Below are positions 965 to 55,336 of a stretch of DNA of 64,000 bases, in pieces. The position numbers and the translations under genes were made by a program. Below the pieces are notes generated by a model. The model did not search any database. It worked only from the letters and a program-made list of their open reading frames with translations, and was not told where the DNA came from. How positions within the stretch are numbered: the stretch's first letter is position 1; each line of letters begins with the position of its first letter. The stretch spans positions 195,307-259,306 of the forward strand of contig CAWFCE010000001.1 in assembly GCA_963814275.1 (NCBI GenBank). The letters run 5' to 3'. This DNA comes from Candidatus Parcubacteria bacterium. Lineage in GTDB: Bacteria > Patescibacteriota > Patescibacteriia > Patescibacteriales > UBA12075.

Positions 965-1630
965 ATGGCTGAAGTAAAAAAAGACAATCCAAATTCTCCC
1001 GCGAGCCAAAAGCCGGGAAACAGTCCGGCGGCCGGAAAGGGCGGTACGGTTTATGGCCGGCGGCAGGCAGAAAGGAAAAGGGGACGGGGCGGACGACCGG
1101 AAAGGATGCCCGACGAGTATGACCAGAGGATCGTGGATATTGCCCGGGTTACCCGCGTAATGGCCGGCGGCAAGCGCATGCGTTTTCGCGCCTGCGTGGC
1201 AATCGGCAACAAAAAGGGCAAAGTGGCGGTCGGAATCGACAAAGGAGCAGATGTGACGATCGCGGTGACCAAGGCGGTCAATCAGGCGAAAAAGCTCTTG
1301 GTGGACGTACCGATCGTTAATGATACCATTCCGCACGAGATTTATTATAAAATGGGAGCGGCCAAGATCCTGCTCAAGCCGGCCCGCAAAGGAAAAGGCG
1401 TTATCGCCGGAGGCGCGGTCAGGATAGTTTTGGAATTGGCCGGGGTTAAGAATATCACCAGCAAGATCTTAGGGACGAATAACGCGGTAAACGTCGCCAA
1501 ATGCACTTTGGCGGCTTTGGATAATATTAAAAAAGTAGAAGTACCGAAGGTGGGCAATAATGACGCTAAGAAAAAAGCTTTGCCGGCGACCGAGGATAAA
1601 AAATCCGTGCCTAAAAATCCGGCCAAATAA
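965..1630 (+). CDS. rpsE: 30S ribosomal protein S5 with N- and C-terminal low-complexity extensions
   Basis: Core RVTRVMAGGKRMRFRA..VAIGN..G.VG.G.GKA..V..A..KA and GAVR.VLE.AG..NI..K matches S5. About 50 extra basic/Pro-rich residues at the N-terminus and about 35 Lys-rich residues at the C-terminus. Confidence 0.93.
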   Translation: MAEVKKDNPNSPASQKPGNSPAAGKGGTVYGRRQAERKRGRGGRPERMPDEYDQRIVDIARVTRVMAGGKRMRFRACVAIGNKKGKVAVGIDKGADVTIAVTKAVNQAKKLLVDVPIVNDTIPHEIYYKMGAAKILLKPARKGKGVIAGGAVRIVLELAGVKNITSKILGTNNAVNVAKCTLAALDNIKKVEVPKVGNNDAKKKALPATEDKKSVPKNPAK

Positions 1631-2097: not shown

Positions 2098-3372
2098 ATG
2101 GTTTTGGATAAGCTCGAACAAATATGGCGCGCCAAGGACCTGAGGAACAGCATATTGTATGTCCTCGGAATGCTGGTTATTTTCCGGCTGGCCGCCCACA
2201 TCCCCGTACCGGGAGTGAATACCGCGGCTTTGAAGGATTTTTTCTCCGGTAACCAGATCTTGGGGCTTTTGAATATCTTTTCCGGCGGGAGCATGCAGAA
2301 CTTTTCCATCGTCATGATGGGCGTGGGCCCGTATATCACCGCTTCGATCATTTTCCAGCTCTTGGGCATGGTCATGCCGAAACTGGAAGAGATGCAGAAG
2401 GAAGAATCCGGACGGCAAAAGATCAATATGTGGACCCGCTGGCTGACCGTACCGATGGCGGTATTGCAGGCGTTCGGCATGATCACGCTTTTGCGCCGCT
2501 CATCGACCGCTATCCTGACGGATGTATCCGGACTGCAGATCGCCGGCATGATCCTGGTCATATCGGCCGGTACCGTATTCCTGATGTGGATTGGGGAGCT
2601 CATTACCGAGAAAAATGTCGGCAACGGCATCTCGCTTTTGATATTCGCCGGCATCGTGTCCGGCTTGCCGCAGGCCATCCAGCAGGTGATCGTCACCTTC
2701 GACCAGTCACAACTTTTCCTGATACTCGGCTTCGTATTGGTGGCGATCGTCACCGTTATCGGTGTGGTATACATTACCGAAGCCCAGCGTAATATTCCCG
2801 TCCAATATGCCAAACAAGTGCGCGGAAACCGCATGTACGGGGGAACCAGCACCCACCTGCCGCTTCGCGTCAATATGGCCGGCGTGATCCCGATCATTTT
2901 CGCCATTTCGGTCGTTTTGTTCCCGTCGATGATCGCGCAGTTTTTCGTGCAGGCCCGTTCGGCCTGGATCGCGTCCGCGGCGGAATGGGTGATCCGGCTG
3001 TTCAATAACCAGATCTTCTACGGGGTTTCCTACTTCGTCCTGGTATTCGCTTTCACATATTTCTATACTGAGGTCATCTTCCATCCGGACCAGATCGCGG
3101 AGAACCTGCAGAAGCAGGGCGGCTTCATCCCGGGCATCCGTCCGGGCAAGCATACGAGCCAGTACCTGGCGAACACGACCCACAAGATCATCTTCGTCGG
3201 CGCGTTGTTCCTGGGCTTGATCGCCATCCTGCCGCTGATCCTGCGCGCAGTGACCAACACCCGCGCCCTGGCCCTGGGAGGCACTTCGCTCCTTATCGTA
3301 GTGGCGGTGGTTATCGAGACGGTAAAGCAGATCGAATCCCAGCTCACCATGCGGGAGTATGAGGGCATGTAA
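2098..3372 (+). CDS. secY: preprotein translocase subunit SecY
   Basis: 424 aa polytopic membrane protein. IPVPG.N, MGVGPYITASII.QLL and GISLLIFAGIV motifs. Operon position after rplO. Confidence 0.95.
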   Translation: MVLDKLEQIWRAKDLRNSILYVLGMLVIFRLAAHIPVPGVNTAALKDFFSGNQILGLLNIFSGGSMQNFSIVMMGVGPYITASIIFQLLGMVMPKLEEMQKEESGRQKINMWTRWLTVPMAVLQAFGMITLLRRSSTAILTDVSGLQIAGMILVISAGTVFLMWIGELITEKNVGNGISLLIFAGIVSGLPQAIQQVIVTFDQSQLFLILGFVLVAIVTVIGVVYITEAQRNIPVQYAKQVRGNRMYGGTSTHLPLRVNMAGVIPIIFAISVVLFPSMIAQFFVQARSAWIASAAEWVIRLFNNQIFYGVSYFVLVFAFTYFYTEVIFHPDQIAENLQKQGGFIPGIRPGKHTSQYLANTTHKIIFVGALFLGLIAILPLILRAVTNTRALALGGTSLLIVVAVVIETVKQIESQLTMREYEGM

Positions 3373-3500
3373 TCATAGAGCTTGAGAGGCGGAGTTTTGG
3401 GCTTTTGGCGGTTGATGATGATTATTACTATATTGAACCTTTTCCACGGATCGGCACGGATCAGAGACGGATTGACACGAATATTTTAAACCATATTAAA

Positions 3501-3521
3501 CCGGCATCGGCCGGTTTTTTT
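3501..3521 (+). terminator. intrinsic terminator after secY
   Basis: ccggc-atcg-gccgg stem-loop followed by a run of 7 T. Confidence 0.6.
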
Positions 3522-3721
3522 GATGCGTAATAGTTGTAAATAAATTTGCCAATGTAAGCAAATATTGTTAAAATTAATTAAGTACAGATAAGAAAACTTT
3601 TTGTAACAGCAAATACCGTTATGTCAGTGATAAAATATAATAATAATAGCTAGTATTAAATAAAAATTATACAAATTCGGATATCACTTGTTAGGCGAAA
3701 TAAATTTATTTATATAATTGT

Positions 3722-3841
3722 ATGGACAACAAAAACGTTATTAAACACCAAGAAAAACCAAAAAAAATGACAAAACTAGAAATACTTATTAGTGCTGCTA
3801 AGGGCATAGCCTTTGCGTTATTATTACTAGGTATTGGTTAA
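3722..3841 (+). CDS. possible small membrane peptide (39 aa), speculative
   Basis: ATG 3 nt after the left TIR. MDNKNVIKHQEKPKKMTKLEILISAAKGIAFALLLLGIG has a hydrophobic C-terminus. No SD. Too short for the ORF track. Confidence 0.2.
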   Translation: MDNKNVIKHQEKPKKMTKLEILISAAKGIAFALLLLGIG

Positions 3842-4072
3842 TATTGGGATGAAAGTGTAGCGGGTAAATCCTTAAAAATTACAAATTACAAGCACCAAAT
3901 TCCAAATAAATCCCAAATTCAAAATTTCAAATTCAAAACCCTGATTACGCGAATATCGGCTTTAAAGAGTGTTTTTAATTTTGGATTTGTGATTTTGAAT
4001 TTATTTGGAATTTAGAATTTGGTGCTTGGAATTTATTAACAATAGTGCTCTCATTTCATTCCGATATTAACC
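3836..4072. repeat. long imperfect palindromic element, copy 1 (ccaaat/atttgg word family)
   Basis: Inner inverted repeats caagcaccaaattccaaataaat (3889-3911) and atttatttggaa[tttagaa]tttggtgcttgg (3999-4029) flank an 87-bp core. The outer arms also pair imperfectly. Confidence 0.85.
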
Positions 4073-4370
4073 GGTATTTTATATATATTTCTATTTATAC
4101 TTAACGCCTTTTCAGGCAAGTATGATTGGATAATGTAAAATTATATAAATAAATTTACTTCGCCTAACACCACGATAAGCGGCTTGGTATTTTGTCAGAG
4201 ACCTCGTGCGAATTTTGAAAATGATTATTGATTATAACAAGGAATTTCAAAAACGTCGCTTTATCGGTGTAAGTTGTACAATATCTAGCTCTTTAAAATA
4301 AAAAATTTTTGAAGGATTTGACATTGAAGCCGTTATTTATTGAACATTTTGAAAGAAAAAGGAGGATGCA

Positions 4371-8642: not shown

Positions 8643-8673
8643 CAGATAACAGATAGCAGAAAACAGATAACAG
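8641..8673. repeat. gataacag word repeat (half hairpin)
   Basis: aacagataacagatagcagaaaacagataacag starts at the permease stop. A short inverse partner atatctgttgtctg lies at 9161-9174, on the other side of ORF 8719-9144. Confidence 0.6.
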
Positions 8674-9144: not shown

Positions 9145-9212
9145 TATGGATATAATTCACATATCTGTTGTCTGCCATTTTAAGGATTAATGTTTTTCTT
9201 TCCCAAATTATA

Positions 9213-9378
9213 AATTCCAAGCACCAAATAACAAATTCCAAATAAATTAGAAATTACAAATTCAAAATTTCAAAAAAATATCACAATATTATCGGATATT
9301 TTGAAACAATCTCAGTCTTGAATTTGGTATTTTTAATTTGATATTTATTTGGAATTTGGTGCTTGGAATTTGGAATTT
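9213..9378. repeat. palindromic element, copy 3 (ccaaat/atttgg family, divergent core)
   Basis: ccaagcaccaaata[acaa]attccaaataaat ... atttatttggaatttggtgcttgg. Same inverted repeats as copies 1 and 2 but a different interior. Confidence 0.75.
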
Positions 9379-9436
9379 AATTGATACAAATCTCGAATTA
9401 AAATTCGATTAAATAATAAGTAAATTTTTATAAAAT

Positions 9437-17511: not shown

Positions 17512-17785
17512 ACAACTTATAAAGCTGTTTGATCCCGGCTGACACCGGGGAATCCTGATTATCGATGATTATCAGGGCGGCGCAGGAAGAAATCCCGGTA
17601 ATTCGGGAGAGTAGAACCTGCCGGGTGCGCCCGTAATAGCGTTAAAAGCGGCCCTGTCGAAGCGTAGTGCGTTACGCTCGAAGTATTGGGAATAAGGGTG
17701 GTACCGCGGATGTTAAACCGAGTAAAGGTAAAACGTTCGTCCCTGTATATCATGATTTGTGGTATATGGAGACGGACGGTTTTTG
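17512..17785 (+). promoter_or_regulatory. T-box riboswitch leader (tRNA-sensing transcription attenuator) upstream of aspS
   Basis: Conserved T-box sequence aataaGGGTGGTACCGCGg at 17691-17709. AGAGTA element at 17606-17611. Terminator stem 17734-17778 plus TTTTT at 17780-17784. Located 5' of an aminoacyl-tRNA synthetase gene. Confidence 0.75.
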
Positions 17786-17787
17786 TT

Positions 17788-17870
17788 AGATAACAGATAG
17801 CAGATAACAGACGACAGTAAGATGCCTTAGATTCGTCTGTTATCTGTTATCTTCTATCTGTTGTCTTTTT
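17788..17870. repeat. gataacag word hairpin between the T-box terminator and aspS
   Basis: agataacagatagcagataacagacga ... tcgtctgttatctgttatcttctatctgttgtct, followed by ttttt. Confidence 0.75.
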
Positions 17871-26716: not shown

Positions 26717-26718
26717 AT

Positions 26719-26824
26719 ATAATACGAATGCTACGAATTACGTTCCGAATGCCCCGAATGCTATATTACGAATTCGGATATATTCGCGGCATTCGGAACG
26801 TAATTCGTAGCATTCGGATTATAA
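26719..26824. repeat. cgaatg/cattcg word hairpin (empty copy)
   Basis: Arms 26721-26752 and 26789-26820 pair over 32 bp with 1 mismatch. The element ends 5 nt before the scpA ATG. Confidence 0.85.
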
Positions 26825-26827
26825 CAT

Positions 26828-27538: not shown

Positions 27539-27542
27539 AGCA

Positions 27543-27644
27543 TAATACGAATGCCCCGAATGGCGCTCCGAATGCCGCAAATATATCCGAATTCGTAATA
27601 TAGCATTCGGAGCATTCGGAACGTCATTCATAGATTCGGATTAT
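27543..27644. repeat. cgaatg/cattcg word hairpin (empty copy)
   Basis: It starts ataatacgaatg and ends attcggattat, like the 26719 copy. Imperfect arms. It ends 12 nt before the scpB ATG. Confidence 0.75.
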
Positions 27645-27655
27645 ATACATACCAT

Positions 27656-30217: not shown

Positions 30218-30218
30218 T

Positions 30219-30305
30219 AGAATCCGAATGCCCCGAATGGCGAATCCGAATGCCCCGAATGGCGAATCCGAATGCCCCGAATGGCGAATCCGAATGCTCC
30301 GAATG
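30219..30305. repeat. tandem 24-bp repeat gaatccgaatgccccgaatggc (about 3.5 copies), left arm of a split cgaatg element
   Basis: Direct reading. The ORF-track start at 30214 merely translates this array. Confidence 0.9.
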
Positions 30306-30309
30306 TATT

Positions 30310-30723
30310 ATGATGGTAAAAATTCTATATAAAGACCTTTCCTATATAATCAATGGTTTGCTGTTTAAGACTCATAGAGAAATGGGTAGGTTTAAAAACG
30401 AGAAACAATACGCAGACTATTTCGAGAAATTATTGATTGAAGAAAAAATTAATTATATAAGAGAATATAGATTTAAAGAAATTTTGTTAAGCAAAACCAG
30501 AATAAGGTGTATTGTTGATTTCATAATTGAGAATATTATTATAATTGAATTTAAGGCTAAAAATTTTATAGTTAAGGAAGATTACCTGCAGACGCAAAGA
30601 TATTTACGCACTTTAAACCTGGAATTGGGTATCCTTATGAATTTTAGACAATACCGTTTAGCTCCAAAAAGAGTTTTAAATAGTGATTACGAACATTCGG
30701 GGCATTCGGAAAATAATTCGTAA
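30310..30723 (+). CDS. GxxExxY-family (PD-(D/E)XK-like) protein
   Basis: D.I.E..II.E.KA and Q...YLR...L.LGIL.NF core pattern typical of the GxxExxY family. Start moved to the ATG at 30310, after the tandem repeat. The last ~12 codons are encoded by the right-arm repeat. Confidence 0.7.
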   Translation: MMVKILYKDLSYIINGLLFKTHREMGRFKNEKQYADYFEKLLIEEKINYIREYRFKEILLSKTRIRCIVDFIIENIIIIEFKAKNFIVKEDYLQTQRYLRTLNLELGILMNFRQYRLAPKRVLNSDYEHSGHSENNS

Positions 30724-30735
30724 CATTCGTATTAT
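30689..30735. repeat. right arm of split cgaatg element
   Basis: Its reverse complement ataatacgaatgttacgaattattttccgaatgccccgaatg is nearly identical to the 5' arm of the 26719 hairpin. It ends at the base before the fba ATG. Confidence 0.85.
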
Positions 30736-31611
30736 ATGCTGGTTCATATCAAAGAAATCGTAAAAATGTCGCAGGAGGGCGGTTATGCCGTCGGCGCTTT
30801 TAATATCCACAACCTGGAGTCGGTCTTGGGTGTCGCCAAAGCGGCGATGCAGGCCAAGTCGCCGGCCATTATTCAGGTATCGGAAAGCGCCATCAAATAT
30901 ATGGGCCTGAAGCCCATCACCCATATCGTATCGACCGTTGCCAAGAATGTGGCCACGCAAGTGCCCATTGCCCTCCATCTGGACCACGGCAAAGACCTTA
31001 CCAACGTATTTGAATGCATTAAAGCCGGCTTTTCTTCGGTGCATATCGATGCGTCGAATCTGCCGCTGGACGAAAATATCGCCGTTACCAAACAGGTCGT
31101 GGAATTGGCCCGCAGCAAGAATGTCTGGGTGCAGGGTGAAATCGGGGCGATTATGGGCGGACATGGCGTGATTTCGGGCAAGATACACAACATTCCGATC
31201 GCCAAAGTAGAAGATGTGGTGATTTTCGTCAGAGAAACCGATGTCGATACGATTGCCGCCGCGATCGGTACCGCACACGGGGTTTTCGATAACGAGGATA
31301 TAAAGATCGATATCCTGAAAGAAATCAAGGAAAAAACACACAAGCCGTTCGTCCTGCACGGCGGATCGGGCGTGGATGACGAAAAGATCAAAAACGCCAT
31401 TAAAAACGGCGTTAATATCATCAATATCGGGACCGATATCAAAGTGGCATTCTCTACCGCCTTGAGGCAGTCGGTCAAGGATCAGCCGGACGAAACCGAT
31501 CCGCGCAAATTGCTGATGCCGACGATTCAGGCGGTTCAGGATGTGGCAGCGGGTAAAATGGAGCTTTTCGGCAGCGCCGGGCAATGTTACGTCGATGAAT
31601 TGGAGACTTAA
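30736..31611 (+). CDS. fba: class II fructose-bisphosphate aldolase
   Basis: 291 aa. GYAVGAFN..N.E, LHLDHG and LHGGSG motifs. Confidence 0.9.
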   Translation: MLVHIKEIVKMSQEGGYAVGAFNIHNLESVLGVAKAAMQAKSPAIIQVSESAIKYMGLKPITHIVSTVAKNVATQVPIALHLDHGKDLTNVFECIKAGFSSVHIDASNLPLDENIAVTKQVVELARSKNVWVQGEIGAIMGGHGVISGKIHNIPIAKVEDVVIFVRETDVDTIAAAIGTAHGVFDNEDIKIDILKEIKEKTHKPFVLHGGSGVDDEKIKNAIKNGVNIINIGTDIKVAFSTALRQSVKDQPDETDPRKLLMPTIQAVQDVAAGKMELFGSAGQCYVDELET

Positions 31612-32726: not shown

Positions 32727-32799
32727 GCCGACGTAGCTCAGCTGGTAGAGCAACTCCATGGTAAGGAGTAGGTCTGGGGTTCGAATCCCCACGTCGGCT
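32727..32799 (+). tRNA. tRNA-Thr (anticodon GGU)
   Basis: Cloverleaf by hand: acceptor GCCGACG/CGTCGGC, D stem GCTC/GAGC, anticodon stem ACTCC/GGAGT with loop ATGGTAA, T arm TGGGG-TTCGAAT-CCCCA. CCA is not encoded. Confidence 0.9.
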
Positions 32800-32804
32800 C
32801 TTTC

Positions 32805-32897
32805 AAATTTCGAATGACGAATGTCGAATGACAAATATATTTTTCTATATAATATTTTACGATAATTTGTCATTCGACATTCGTAATTCGTCATTTT
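32805..32897. repeat. cgaatg-family hairpin filling the spacer between the two tRNAs
   Basis: aaatttcgaatgacgaatgtcgaatgacaaat ... atttgtcattcgacattcgtaattcgtcatttt. The inner 20 bp pair perfectly. Confidence 0.85.
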
Positions 32898-32900
32898 CGG

Positions 32901-32984
32901 GGGTCGATACTCAAGCGGTCAACGAGGGCAGACTGTAAATCTGCTGGCCTTGCGCCTACGTAGGTTCGAGTCCTACTCGGCCCA
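32901..32984 (+). tRNA. tRNA-Tyr (anticodon GUA), long variable arm
   Basis: Acceptor GGGTCGA/TCGGCCC (one G-U pair), anticodon stem GCAGA/TCTGC with loop CTGTAAA, long variable arm, T arm GTAGG-TTCGAGT-CCTAC, discriminator A. Confidence 0.88.
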
Positions 32985-33027
32985 CAATACAAAAACAGCG
33001 CCACAAGCGCTGTTTTTGTATTGTGGG
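32981..33027. repeat. perfect 21-bp hairpin overlapping the 3' acceptor end of tRNA-Tyr
   Basis: cccacaatacaaaaacagcgc-cacaa-gcgctgtttttgtattgtggg. No T-run follows. Confidence 0.85.
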
Positions 33028-48008: not shown

Positions 48009-48869
48009 ATGCCGGAATTGCCGGAAGTGGAAACCGTGGTGCGCGATCTGCGCCCCAAGGTTTTACGAATCGCCATAAAAAACATAGAAATACTGCTGCC
48101 CAGGATCGTCAAAAACAGACCGGCTGAATTCAAAAAAAATCTGATAAATAACGAGTTCAGCGGGATCGAGCGGATCGGCAAGCTCATGATATTCCGGCTG
48201 CAGAACGGCGGCAAAGCCATGCTGGTTCATCTCAAGATGACCGGCCAGCTGGTATATTGCCAGGGGGAGAAAATTGTCGCCGGTGGCCATGATGACGGAA
48301 CCGACCCCACTTGCCTGCCGGACAAATGGACCAGGGTGGTTTTTCATTTCGCTGACGGCGGTCGATTGTGTTTTAACGATATGCGGACATTCGGTTATTT
48401 ATCGCTGGCGGATACGGACAAATTAAGTTTGATCAGAAGGAGGTACGGCCCGGATCCGTTGACCAGTAAATTCACATTGGCCGATTTTAAACGGACAATT
48501 AAGGACAGGCATACCAGTATAAAAGCTTTGCTTTTGAATCAGGAAATTATTGCCGGGCTTGGCAATATCTATGTCGATGAGATCCTATACCGGGCCGGAG
48601 TCAGGCCGGCGAGAAAGGCCAGTGGCCTAAAAAACTTCGAAATAGAGGCAATTTATGGAGCGGTAAAACCCGTGTTGCAGAGAGCGATCAAGAACCGCGG
48701 GACGACATTCAATAATTACGTGGACGGCAACGGCCAGAGGGGCAATTTTGTCCGGCTGCTCAAAGTTTACGGACGGCAGGGGAAATCATGCAAGCGCTGC
48801 GGAACAGCCATTAAAAAGGCCAAGGTGGCCGGGCGGGGGACGCATTATTGCCCGGTATGTCAATCTTAG
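48009..48869 (+). CDS. mutM: formamidopyrimidine-DNA glycosylase
   Basis: N-terminal MPELPEVE. C-terminal zinf finger C.RCG......(n)..YCP.CQ. Confidence 0.93.
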   Translation: MPELPEVETVVRDLRPKVLRIAIKNIEILLPRIVKNRPAEFKKNLINNEFSGIERIGKLMIFRLQNGGKAMLVHLKMTGQLVYCQGEKIVAGGHDDGTDPTCLPDKWTRVVFHFADGGRLCFNDMRTFGYLSLADTDKLSLIRRRYGPDPLTSKFTLADFKRTIKDRHTSIKALLLNQEIIAGLGNIYVDEILYRAGVRPARKASGLKNFEIEAIYGAVKPVLQRAIKNRGTTFNNYVDGNGQRGNFVRLLKVYGRQGKSCKRCGTAIKKAKVAGRGTHYCPVCQS

Positions 48870-48950
48870 GCAATAGGGTTGTAGGCGGTAGGCAATAGGG
48901 TTGTGGGCGGTAGGCAATAGGGTTGTGGGCGGTAGGGTTGTAGGGGTTGC
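48868..48950. repeat. tandem ggcaatagggttgt(a/g)ggcggta repeat (about 3 copies)
   Basis: Direct reading. It starts at the mutM stop codon. Confidence 0.85.
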
Positions 48951-49630: not shown

Positions 49631-49670
49631 ATTAGGCGGTAGGCAATAGGCAATAGGCGGTAGGCGTAGG
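49631..49670. repeat. ggcggtaggcaatagg word repeat (same orientation as 48868)
   Basis: attaggcggtaggcaataggcaataggcggtaggcgtagg. Confidence 0.8.
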
Positions 49671-49703
49671 TTTATATTTAGTATTATTATTTAACAAGGA
49701 GGT

Positions 49704-50075
49704 ATGTATCACAAAACGACCTATAAAGACCTGGTAGTATGGCAGAAGTCTATGGATTTGGTCGTTGAGGTATATAAATTAACGGCAAAATATCCCCAGG
49801 AAGAAAAATACGGATTAGTTTCACAATCAAGAAGATGCGTAGTGTCAATGCCTTCAAACATTGCAGAAGGTAAGCGAAGGGGTACACTTCCTCAATTCGT
49901 TCATTTCTTGCTTATAAGCTATTCATCAGGGTCGGAACTGGAAACCCAATTAGAGATTGCCAAGCGATTAAATTTCGTGAAACCGAATGATTATGTAAAA
50001 GCGGAAGAACTGTTGGATGAAGTAATGAAAATGCTAAATAAAATGATTAACAATAATCATGCTATAAAGGTGTAG
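49704..50075 (+). CDS. four-helix-bundle protein (23S rRNA intervening-sequence protein family)
   Basis: [11 protein letters not shown]...VY.LT..+P.EE.YGL.SQ.RR..VS.PSNIAEG pattern. Confidence 0.8.
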
Positions 50076-50112
50076 GCAAGGCTATTGCCTGTTGCCTACA
50101 ACCCTATAGCCT
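50072..50112. repeat. inverted copy of the ggcaatagg words
   Basis: The reverse complement of gtaggcaaggctattgcctgttgcctacaaccctatagcc reads ggctatagggttgtaggcaacaggcaatagcc. It overlaps the stop codon of the four-helix-bundle gene. Confidence 0.8.
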
Positions 50113-50119
50113 AAAACGA

Positions 50120-54719: not shown

Positions 54720-54810
54720 AGTTATTGATTTATTGCTTATTTGGAAAATCTTGTGGGTTAAATTCGATAGGTATATTCAATGTTATTCCCATATATTCTA
54801 AGCCCTAAAA

Positions 54811-55039
54811 GTTAATATTGCCATGAATTGAGAGCGGCTGAATATATAAAATTTCAAATTCCAAGCACCAAATTCCAAATAAATTCAAAATCACAAATCT
54901 AAAATACAAAACACTTTGTTAAAGCCGATATTCGTGTAATCAGGGTTTTGAATTTGAAATTTTGAATTTGGGATTTATTTGGAATTTGGTGCTTGGAATT
55001 TATTAACAATAGTGCTCTCATTTCATTCCAGTATTAACC
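54811..55039. repeat. long imperfect palindromic element, copy 2 (core inverted relative to copy 1)
   Basis: IRs ccaagcaccaaattccaaataaat (54861-54884) and atttatttggaatttggtgcttgg (54973-54996). The core 54885-54972 equals the reverse complement of 3912-3998 apart from a few mismatches and one indel. The right flank is the same as in copy 1. Confidence 0.9.
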
Positions 55040-55336
55040 CCTAAGGTTTAATATTGTAATAAAAGTGAAACGCTATAATATAATACATTTGGAAATTGCT
55101 TATTTGGTGTCTGGAAATTAGTTTTTACGCACTTCGAAACCAGCCAATTTCTAACTTCCACATAACCAGTTTCCCATTAAGATTTAGGGTATATTCCGGT
55201 GTTTCACTTTTATATCAATATCAACCCTTGAGTATTTAAGTCTTTATGAGATGGGGTAGTGAATAAGATTTGAAATTTTCCCCATAAGACTATCCGAGAA
55301 TCAATTTTTTATATATAGCATAAAAACCTTATACAC

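Follow-up and report, generated by a model that had tools for sequence, protein, structure and literature searches.

Two palindromic elements, E1 and E2, carry the same core in opposite orientations within a 64-kb stretch of the genome of Candidatus Parcubacteria bacterium (assembly GCA_963814275.1, contig CAWFCE010000001.1, positions 195,307 to 259,306), here called the window. Each element consists of an outer module (O) enclosing an inner hairpin (H), the arms of which are arrays of 7-nt units. The central part of H is reverse-complemented between the two loci, while the outer flanks keep the same orientation. With a probability of roughly 0.6, the opposite cores result from non-programmed, homology-driven exchange between the hairpin arms of a foldback element resembling a miniature inverted-repeat transposable element (MITE), and not from an inverton.

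Inversion restricted to the core is seen in pairwise alignments of the two loci. The right outer flanks of E1 and E2 align directly with 41/43 identities, against 35/51 when one is reverse-complemented, and the left outer flanks likewise favour the direct alignment (39/53 against 34/52). The cores show the opposite preference, with 82/88 identities after reverse complementation (five mismatches and one indel) and 61/91 in direct orientation. An independent repeat search found 3883-3965 to be 98% complementary to 54919-55001 over 83 nt. The right flanks share an exact 33-nt stretch (4030-4062 and 54997-55029), with none expected in shuffled sequence. An earlier note, based on the letters alone, had described right flanks in the same orientation with about two differences and a second core equal to the reverse complement of the first, apart from a few mismatches and one indel; both descriptions hold. 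So does its dismissal of whole-element insertion in the opposite orientation, which does not explain the pattern because the core has changed orientation with respect to the flanks on both sides.

The change of orientation is located inside inverted repeats (IRs) that border the core. The 24-bp IR CCAAGCACCAAATTCCAAATAAAT, with no match expected in shuffled sequence, occurs at 3888-3911 (+, one mismatch), 54861-54884 (+, exact) and 54973-54996 (-, exact), and again in C3, a third locus with H, at 9343-9366 (-, exact) and 9224-9247 (+, three mismatches). The 24-bp IRs given in the earlier note are thus real, with two corrections: the left IR of E1 begins with A, not C, and the perfect IR of E2 reaches 29 bp (54856-54884 and 54973-55001). 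The reported 7-bp insertion (agaattt), by which the right IR of E1 is lengthened, was found again, as was the third copy, which has the IRs and a different core or loop. C3 also has an additional 7-nt unit, in its left IR, and the two additions sit at the same place within the IR. Slippage and templated repair in repeats would be expected to leave such differences of entire 7-nt units between copies of H.

Each of E1 and E2 is a long imperfect palindrome with two nested modules, and as single strands both fold into one hairpin, with minimum free energies of -84.7 kcal/mol (z -8.95) for 3830-4080 and -84.3 kcal/mol (z -10.7) for 54805-55045. In the two folds, the outer flanks pair mutually and the inner arms extend the same stem, which becomes continuous over ~110 bp and encloses the invertible segment of 87-88 bp. 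The switch points fall within the sole long stretch of perfectly paired arms. Divergence between E1 and E2 is uneven along the element, with identities of 74% in the left and 95% in the right outer flank, and of 98% and about 81% in the core halves. The modules are separable, since C3 is H without O (-55.8 kcal/mol, z -6.9) and E3, directly adjoining E2, has the outer ends of E1 and E2 around another inner hairpin (-51.7 kcal/mol, z -5.6). Inside E3, the G/T-rich 7-mer arm comes first and the A/C-rich arm second, the reverse of E1, E2 and C3. Such an order is not producible by inversion and might have originated at the junction of two adjacent hairpins.

The outer module has MITE-like features. 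The ends of E1 (GGTTAATATTGGGATGAA and, reverse-complemented, GGTTAATATCGGAATGAA) both fit the outer-end motif GGTTAATATTGNNATGAA, and those of E3 are GTTTAATATTGTAATAAA and, reverse-complemented, GGTTGATATTGATATAAA. Six matches to the motif were found in the window against 1.26 expected by chance, solely as the three inverted pairs of E1, E2 and E3. Direct repeats abut the aligned ends of E1 (GGTATT/GGTATT, 6/6) and E2 (CCTAAa/CCTAAg, 5/6), and are putative target-site duplications judging from their position; the repeat flanking E3 (4/6) is not significant. At fixed positions, and with uniform base composition assumed, chance would give 6/6 with a probability of ~2e-4 and at least 5/6 with ~5e-3. 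Duplication-like flanks right outside the paired ends suggest that the O+H composites inserted as whole units. The three copies in 64 kb measure 181-237 bp. No open reading frame (ORF) of at least 25 aa lies within E1, a 39-aa ORF (3722-3841) overlapping its first six bases by its end, and E2 has just three short minus-strand ORFs of 26-40 aa. E1 and E2 thus share with MITEs and foldback elements the terminal inverted repeats (TIRs), the 6-bp duplication-like flanks, the small non-coding sequence present in several copies and the insertion beside or inside other elements, E2 abutting E3 and E1 lying within another IR-bounded cassette. Unlike MITEs, the whole element is a near-continuous palindrome, its interior belongs to a separate multi-phylum repeat family, and no cognate transposase was found among the 38 larger window proteins scanned. 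Scans of metagenome contigs with the outer flank AATAGTGCTCTCATTTCATTCC and the core loop GATTACRCGAATATCGGCTTTAA for further copies of the subfamily gave no match with either.

The cassette around E1 is bounded by 34-nt arms (3689-3722 and 4136-4169) that are 94% complementary. Removal of E1 and one GGTATT in silico joins an open frame of 42 aa (ATG at 3767) or 57 aa (ATG at 3722), a small hydrophobic ORF with its stop exactly at the right arm of the larger IR. The idea of a gene interrupted by E1 is weak because the restored ORF is without homologues, a protein search having returned only the truncated ORF of the same contig. Exact-protein look-ups with neighbouring genes and junction-spanning short ORFs, aimed at orthologous loci or at the other orientation, yielded only contigs of run ERR11571143 that end at the element edges, or nothing.

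The inner hairpin is one of a family of hairpins present in many phyla. H is ~150 nt long, and its arms are arrays of 7-nt units (AAATTAC, AAGCACC, AAATTCC, AAATAAA etc.) paired with their complement, as seen in period-7 rows of Tandem Repeats Finder (TRF). In E1, E2 and C3, no direct repeat marks the boundary of H and the 7-mer array continues beyond the IR. A search with the 20-mer GCACCAAATTCCAAATAAAT against one genome per species gave at least 119 loci, the window's own genome being absent from them. The matches listed come from Aminicenantes, Acidobacteriota, Desulfobacterales, other Deltaproteobacteria, many Patescibacteria, Bacteroidota (Aequorivita), Omnitrophota, Verrucomicrobiota and others; a few are chance matches in genes (e.g. 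loci L003 and L030). Most of the matches listed share the arm layout. In 121 copies, conservation sets in abruptly 16 nt upstream of the 20-mer, and the consensus among the matches listed reads AAATtCCAAATtcCAA, the 20-mer, tCCAAATTCCAAAtTcCAAa.acCaAAAc and then a variable loop, the sequence of which differs between family members. A complementary arm lies within 100-250 nt in at least about 90 cases among the matches listed. The 7-nt units follow one another in a conserved order across a range of taxa that extends from Patescibacteria to Acidobacteriota and Desulfobacterales. This family, the arms made of 7-nt units and the existence of O as a separate module bounded by TIRs and flanked by duplications had been overlooked in the earlier note.

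Several other possibilities were considered and rejected. Orientation of H relative to the neighbouring genes is unbiased among the matches listed (20 ++, 21 --, 11 divergent and 6 convergent), which disposes of a strand polarity with respect to genes. The rule 'A/C-rich arm first' is no polarity marker, being true of both strands of any such palindrome. Better folding of the plus strand, seen in 7/11 window hairpins, is no proof of a signal at the RNA level, as the G and A skew of that strand could cause it. Viral contigs scanned with the 20-mer and with a permuted control gave no matches in either case, and so no evidence of a phage vehicle. A cyanobacterial origin was discarded because the octamer GCGATCGC, the HIP1 palindrome typical of cyanobacteria, occurs just twice in 64 kb. 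A terminator role was likewise dropped: both elements lack a downstream T-run, and a canonical intrinsic terminator (3498-3517) upstream of E1 already belongs to the secY operon. Comparison with Rfam 15 gave no family at or above the gathering threshold, with only plant microRNA-precursor hairpins and FasX below it. In Acidobacteriota and Aminicenantes (L001, L010, L013 and others), two arm types recur across genomes, e.g. AAATAAAT opposite GCTTGTTT, and the arm differences in these hairpins appear, by eye, to be mostly transitions (T·G and A·C oppositions).

Flips of the core relative to the outer arms recur in other genomes. Locus L013, from the Acidobacteriota metagenome-assembled genome (MAG) STD1_43, has two copies of H 2 kb apart, the cores of which align directly (84/96, against 58/97 when reverse-complemented), while the outer arm units are swapped. 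The left unit ACTAAAATTCCAAATCC of one copy, when reverse-complemented, is the same as the right end of its partner over 17/17 nt by the IR, and the other pair of ends agrees, as read from the sequences, over 18/22 nt next to the IR. Computed alignments of 30-nt arms also favour the swapped arrangement (24/31 against 15/30, and 21/31 against 18/31), and the switch is located in the same IR, CAAGCACCAAATTCCAAA. Between loci L010 and L108 (Acidobacteria MAG Prado013), the flanks align better reverse-complemented and the centre better directly, so that these sequences probably represent a second core-versus-outer-arm flip in Acidobacteriota. Most of the 26 same-genome pairs compared are too diverged or too symmetric for classification; clear concordant pairs are L061-L078, L051-L094 and L043-L110, and clear discordant pairs are E1/E2, L013 and L010-L108. 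A second flip within the window was considered for the CGAATGN hairpins at 26717-26827 and 27539-27655, which have exactly reverse-complementary loops, and was set aside as ambiguous because one hairpin is so perfect a palindrome that no orientation can be assigned to it.

A long quasipalindrome with a perfect arm match of 24-29 bp is a classic substrate for template switching and recombination. Template switching between IR arms has been shown to keep these homogeneous and to invert the spacer in a reversible manner, with a preference for long arms (PMC8604942; also PMC8794818). From the anatomy and the recurrence of the flip, we infer a comparable process in the window. E1 and E2 would be copies of a mobile, non-coding MITE-like foldback element, in which O (ends GGTTAATATTG..., 6-bp duplications) encloses H. 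Exchange within the best-matching 24-29 bp of the two arms, by template switching during replication or by recombination or gene conversion via the IRs, would convert one isomer into the other (E1 being the 'flip' and E2 the 'flop'). Such exchange could take place within one element or between copies, the palindromic IRs offering homology on both sides. Everything between the crossover points would be reverse-complemented, the outer arms and the hairpin would be kept, and the orientation as such would probably have no regulatory meaning. Arm exchange explains where the switch points lie and why the hairpin is kept, as well as the changes by whole 7-nt units, the uneven divergence and the recurrence. 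Hairpin-templated strand switching in a quasipalindrome, one of two mechanisms put forward in the earlier note, is thus the reading that best fits both anatomy and recurrence. Like E1/E2, quasipalindrome IR spacer inversions (Ripley-type; PMC8604942, PMC8794818) and plastid hairpin inversions have a reverse-complemented segment between inverted arms; shared features also include homogeneous arms, reversible and recurrent events favouring long arms, and no dedicated enzyme. The quasipalindrome cases cited differ in that they involve a few bases, whereas the piece inverted in E1/E2 is 87-88 bp long, comprises imperfect inner arms and a loop and sits in a dispersed repeat, its mechanism being deduced from sequence comparison.

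Several points weigh against arm exchange. One clean inversion would not be expected to leave divergence so uneven along the element, which suggests that further conversion events took place. The two orientations were observed at two different loci, not at one, and are known from assembled contigs, so that active switching at one locus may occur. The IR is conserved across phyla and could be a protein recognition site, beyond being merely the best homology. The modules are separable, and nested insertion may have produced the composites. Finally, the survey covered the 64-kb window, which is only a part of the genome.

Under nested insertion, H would be a mobile element in its own right that entered the centres of two copies of O in separate events and in either orientation. 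It finds some support in the separability just mentioned (C3 lacks O, and in E3 the outer module has another interior) and in the occurrence of H elsewhere in unique DNA, with conservation ending 16 nt upstream of the 20-mer. It is also favoured by the extra small palindromes nested in the arms of two Aminicenantes loci, L017 (~3990-4010) and L111 (~3245-3265), where only the right arm has the insert agtccccgc(t)aaggggatt, which suggests a second, smaller nested element. Against it, E1 and E2 have the same right O/H junction, base for base, no target consensus is found upstream of H in 121 copies (~0.1 bit of information), and no duplication flanks H at E1, E2 or C3. Two precise independent events would be required instead of one inversion. 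The flip in L013 occurs inside H itself and, as no separate outer element is present there, nested insertion cannot account for it. On balance, nested insertion is unlikely as the origin of the opposite cores.

Other 7-mer hairpins carry genes in their loops, and these genes link the class to the intervening sequences (IVSs) of 23S rRNA. Period-7 TRF rows occur at roughly 15-17 intergenic places in the window, and two of these arrays or hairpins have loop genes. A four-helix-bundle gene (49704-50072; TIGR02436, 119 bits; PF05635 family) lies between inverted TAGGCAA-type arrays (49633-49670 and 50077-50114), and a GxxExxY gene (30310-30720; TIGR04256, 59.6 bits) occupies the loop of a CGAATGN hairpin (30218-30737). 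Inverted arrays of 7-nt units bracket such genes in 10/10 cases examined, namely the two in the window, two in L115, those in L074 and L007, and four independently fetched homologues (L122, L123, L124 and L127). The fetched homologues, which include Bipolaricaulota, Collierbacteria and Roizmanbacteria, are wedged between operon genes. In L007, the gene (PF05635, 43.6 bits) sits in an H-type hairpin with the same 20-mer GCACCAAATTCCAAATAAAT. The nearest named homologues of the four-helix-bundle protein of the window are nearly all from Patescibacteria, by which the window would probably belong to a CPR bacterium. An example of a bracketing unit is TAGCTTG/TAGGTTG ... CAAGCTA, and the hosts are often housekeeping operons (sufC-sufB, rpiB-rpe). 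In the window, the four-helix-bundle unit (49631-50114) is placed between rubrerythrin and desulfoferrodoxin genes and the GxxExxY hairpin between TIM-like and aldolase-like genes; more TAGGCAA-type arrays follow an fpg-like gene (48867-48936), and the two CGAATGN hairpins of the ambiguous pair are empty.

PF05635 (S23p) is the protein encoded in 23S rRNA IVSs. The IVS of Coxiella burnetii has been reported to be a selfish hairpin with a 28-bp terminal stem, cut by RNase III, with an S23p ORF in its loop and GACAGAT heptamers in variable number (PMC4990558). As loop genes of this protein family occur in sibling hairpins, the 7-mer hairpin class is linked to 23S rRNA IVSs. E1, E2 and C3 have the long terminal-IR stem with heptameric repeats and, judging from their sequences, resemble empty intergenic relatives of IVS hairpins, nested in E1 and E2 in a MITE-like shell. 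The likeness to the Coxiella IVS (PMC4990558) covers the long terminal-IR hairpin, the variable-copy heptamers in the stem region and the optional S23p loop gene, present in the L007 sibling. Unlike IVSs, the three elements lie between protein-coding genes, outside 23S rRNA helix 25/45 (no rRNA is present in the window), contain no loop ORF and have units that differ from GACAGAT. If transcribed, the ~110-bp stem of E1 and E2 could, by analogy with 23S IVSs, be an RNase III-type substrate.

These hairpins also bear on a broader reading, in which the conserved 20-29-bp IR is the recognition or exchange site of a multi-phylum hairpin system mobilized in trans, flips being a by-product of replication or transposition via hairpins. 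The hairpins of such a system could be empty or could carry four-helix-bundle or nuclease-like GxxExxY genes, with the 23S IVS as one special case. The recurrent core flips would then be comparable to the flip/flop of parvoviral and poxviral terminal hairpins. This reading is speculative and rather improbable. No literature linking 7-mer hairpins, four-helix-bundle/GxxExxY cassettes and flips was found, in a coverage that was incomplete.

The second mechanism of the earlier note, a programmed inverton, fares worse. Invertons, such as fimS, the hin system and the promoter invertons of Bacteroides, are IR-bounded segments found in both orientations, and here a site-specific recombinase would reversibly flip the core and so switch a promoter or another signal (phase variation). 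E1/E2 resemble them in having an IR-bounded segment in both orientations (24-bp IRs, 29 in E2); perfect IRs of 24-29 bp bound the inverted segment, the IR sequence is unusually conserved across phyla, and other genomes show the flip at this IR, too. However, the segment, at just 87-88 bp, is much shorter than in invertons and lies within a continuous hairpin stem, and the two orientations are at two loci. The note had found no invertase nearby, and Pfam or NCBIfam searches agree, with no serine or tyrosine recombinase, invertase or integrase among the 38 larger window proteins scanned. These proteins are of the housekeeping type (SecY, ABC/FtsX, GT4 glycosyltransferases, CorA, aminoacyl-tRNA synthetases, Fpg, RuvX, RecO, AcrB and others), only RuvX and RecO having turned up in connection with recombination. 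The outward promoter on which the note had speculated did not materialize: a scan for sigma-70-type consensus promoters gave none in 3912-3998 or 54885-54972, and region-wide counts did not exceed the shuffle expectation. As loops differ among family members, no conserved payload is switched, and the hairpin orientation is unbiased with respect to flanking genes (20 ++ against 21 --). Flips at the same IR in unrelated genomes are more readily understood as following from the structure of the palindrome than as a switch specific to one locus. Collectively, this makes a programmed inverton very improbable.

An assembly artefact, in which the core orientation at one of two repeat-sharing loci was mis-resolved in a short-read MAG, is hardly credible: the window does come from a metagenome-derived contig of 457,738 bp, and an independent k-mer assembly of ERR11571143 breaks at the element edges (L120 ends at 54808, L121 starts at 4033), but the cores differ by five mismatches and one indel, private changes at each locus (the 7-nt insertion, the A/C at the IR start) indicate that each core belongs to its own locus and was not copied in as a consensus, no long stretch is shared exactly (33 nt direct), and the same architecture is found in independent assemblies of other organisms.

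Table 1. Coordinates of the elements, their parts and related loci (window positions unless a locus is named)
Feature	Positions	Strand	Remarks
E1 composite (O + inner 7-mer hairpin H, 'flip')	3836-4072		Hairpin fold; ends match outer-end motif
E1 left flank GGTATT, putative 6-bp target-site duplication	3830-3835		Identical to 4073-4078; directly outside aligned ends
E1 right flank GGTATT, putative target-site duplication	4073-4078		
E1 left inner IR aCAAGCACCAAATTCCAAATAAAT	3888-3911	+	
E1 core (arm A, loop, arm B)	3912-3998		
E1 right inner IR	3999-4029	-	One extra 7-nt unit (agaattt)
E1 right outer arm	4030-4072	+	41/43 direct identity to 54997-55039
E2 composite (O + H, 'flop')	54810-55039		Hairpin fold; each end is the outer-end motif with one mismatch
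E2 left flank CCTAAa, putative target-site duplication (5/6)	54804-54809		
E2 right flank CCTAAg, putative target-site duplication (5/6)	55040-55045		Also abuts E3
E2 left inner IR	54861-54884	+	Exact
E2 core	54885-54972		Reverse complement of E1 core
E2 right inner IR	54973-54996	-	Exact
E3	55046-55226		Outer ends as E1/E2, other inner hairpin; directly adjoins E2
C3	~9205-9380		H without O; different loop; extra 7-nt unit in left IR
Loop genes, L115	2861-3259, 6733-7131		
Loop gene, L074	1538-1942		
Loop gene, L007	3730-4092 (PF05635 at 3730-4089)		
Inverted arrays, L122, L123, L124, L127	about 560-600 and 966-1000		

Two further classes of dispersed repeats invite comparison. Repetitive extragenic palindromic sequences (REPs) and the hairpins that they form (REPINs) are dispersed intergenic palindromes found in both orientations, and REP sequences are species-specific. 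H differs in that its arms are made of 7-nt units, its 20-mer is common to many phyla, and no gene of the type encoding REP-associated tyrosine transposases (RAYTs) is among the window proteins scanned. Cyanobacterial short tandemly repeated repetitive (STRR) sequences are tandem heptanucleotide repeats. TAACTGA heptamers are found in Beggiatoaceae, Cyanobacteria and Bacteroidetes, and bacterial heptamer repeats in general are abundant and unexplained (PMC4679880). Both these repeats and H are intergenic 7-nt arrays with a patchy distribution across phyla, but the former are described mainly as direct arrays, whereas H consists of mixed units paired with their complement in hairpins of 100-250 nt, with a conserved unit order.

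Period-7 arrays also mark other places in the window. They directly follow many stop codons (e.g. 8643, 21301, 30218, 46715, 48870 and 63813), and many 7-nt units hold TAG or TAA (at 8643, 48867, 63827 and others in the window, and in the flanks of L122-L127). A 7-nt period shifts the reading frame from one unit to the next, so that a run of three stop-bearing units gives stops in all three frames, and this may explain the tight placement of arrays against coding genes. An AGATAAC-type 7-mer hairpin (17786-17868) comes directly after a T-box-like leader, in the region 17556-17868 upstream of the aspartyl-tRNA synthetase gene (RF00230, 29.6 bits against a threshold of 93, E 8e-5). A CGAATGA-type hairpin (32805-32896) fills the spacer between tRNA-Thr (32727-32800) and tRNA-Tyr (32901-32985). 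Nearly all window genes are on the plus strand, the GC skew is positive in 31/32 2-kb windows with an almost unbroken cumulative rise, and intergenic DNA is far more AT-rich than coding DNA.

The event that separates E1 from E2 is an ordinary type of mutation in an unusual and under-described class of repeats. E1 and E2 ought not to be listed as an example of phase variation, and such palindromes would mislead tools that detect invertons as IR-flanked segments. The comparison exposes a class of repeats made of long hairpins that form by pairing between arrays of 7-nt units and are either empty or carry small genes of the 23S IVS type. This class offers a handle on the nature of bacterial heptamer repeats, on the spread of IVS and four-helix-bundle cassettes and on the upkeep of palindromes in compact genomes.

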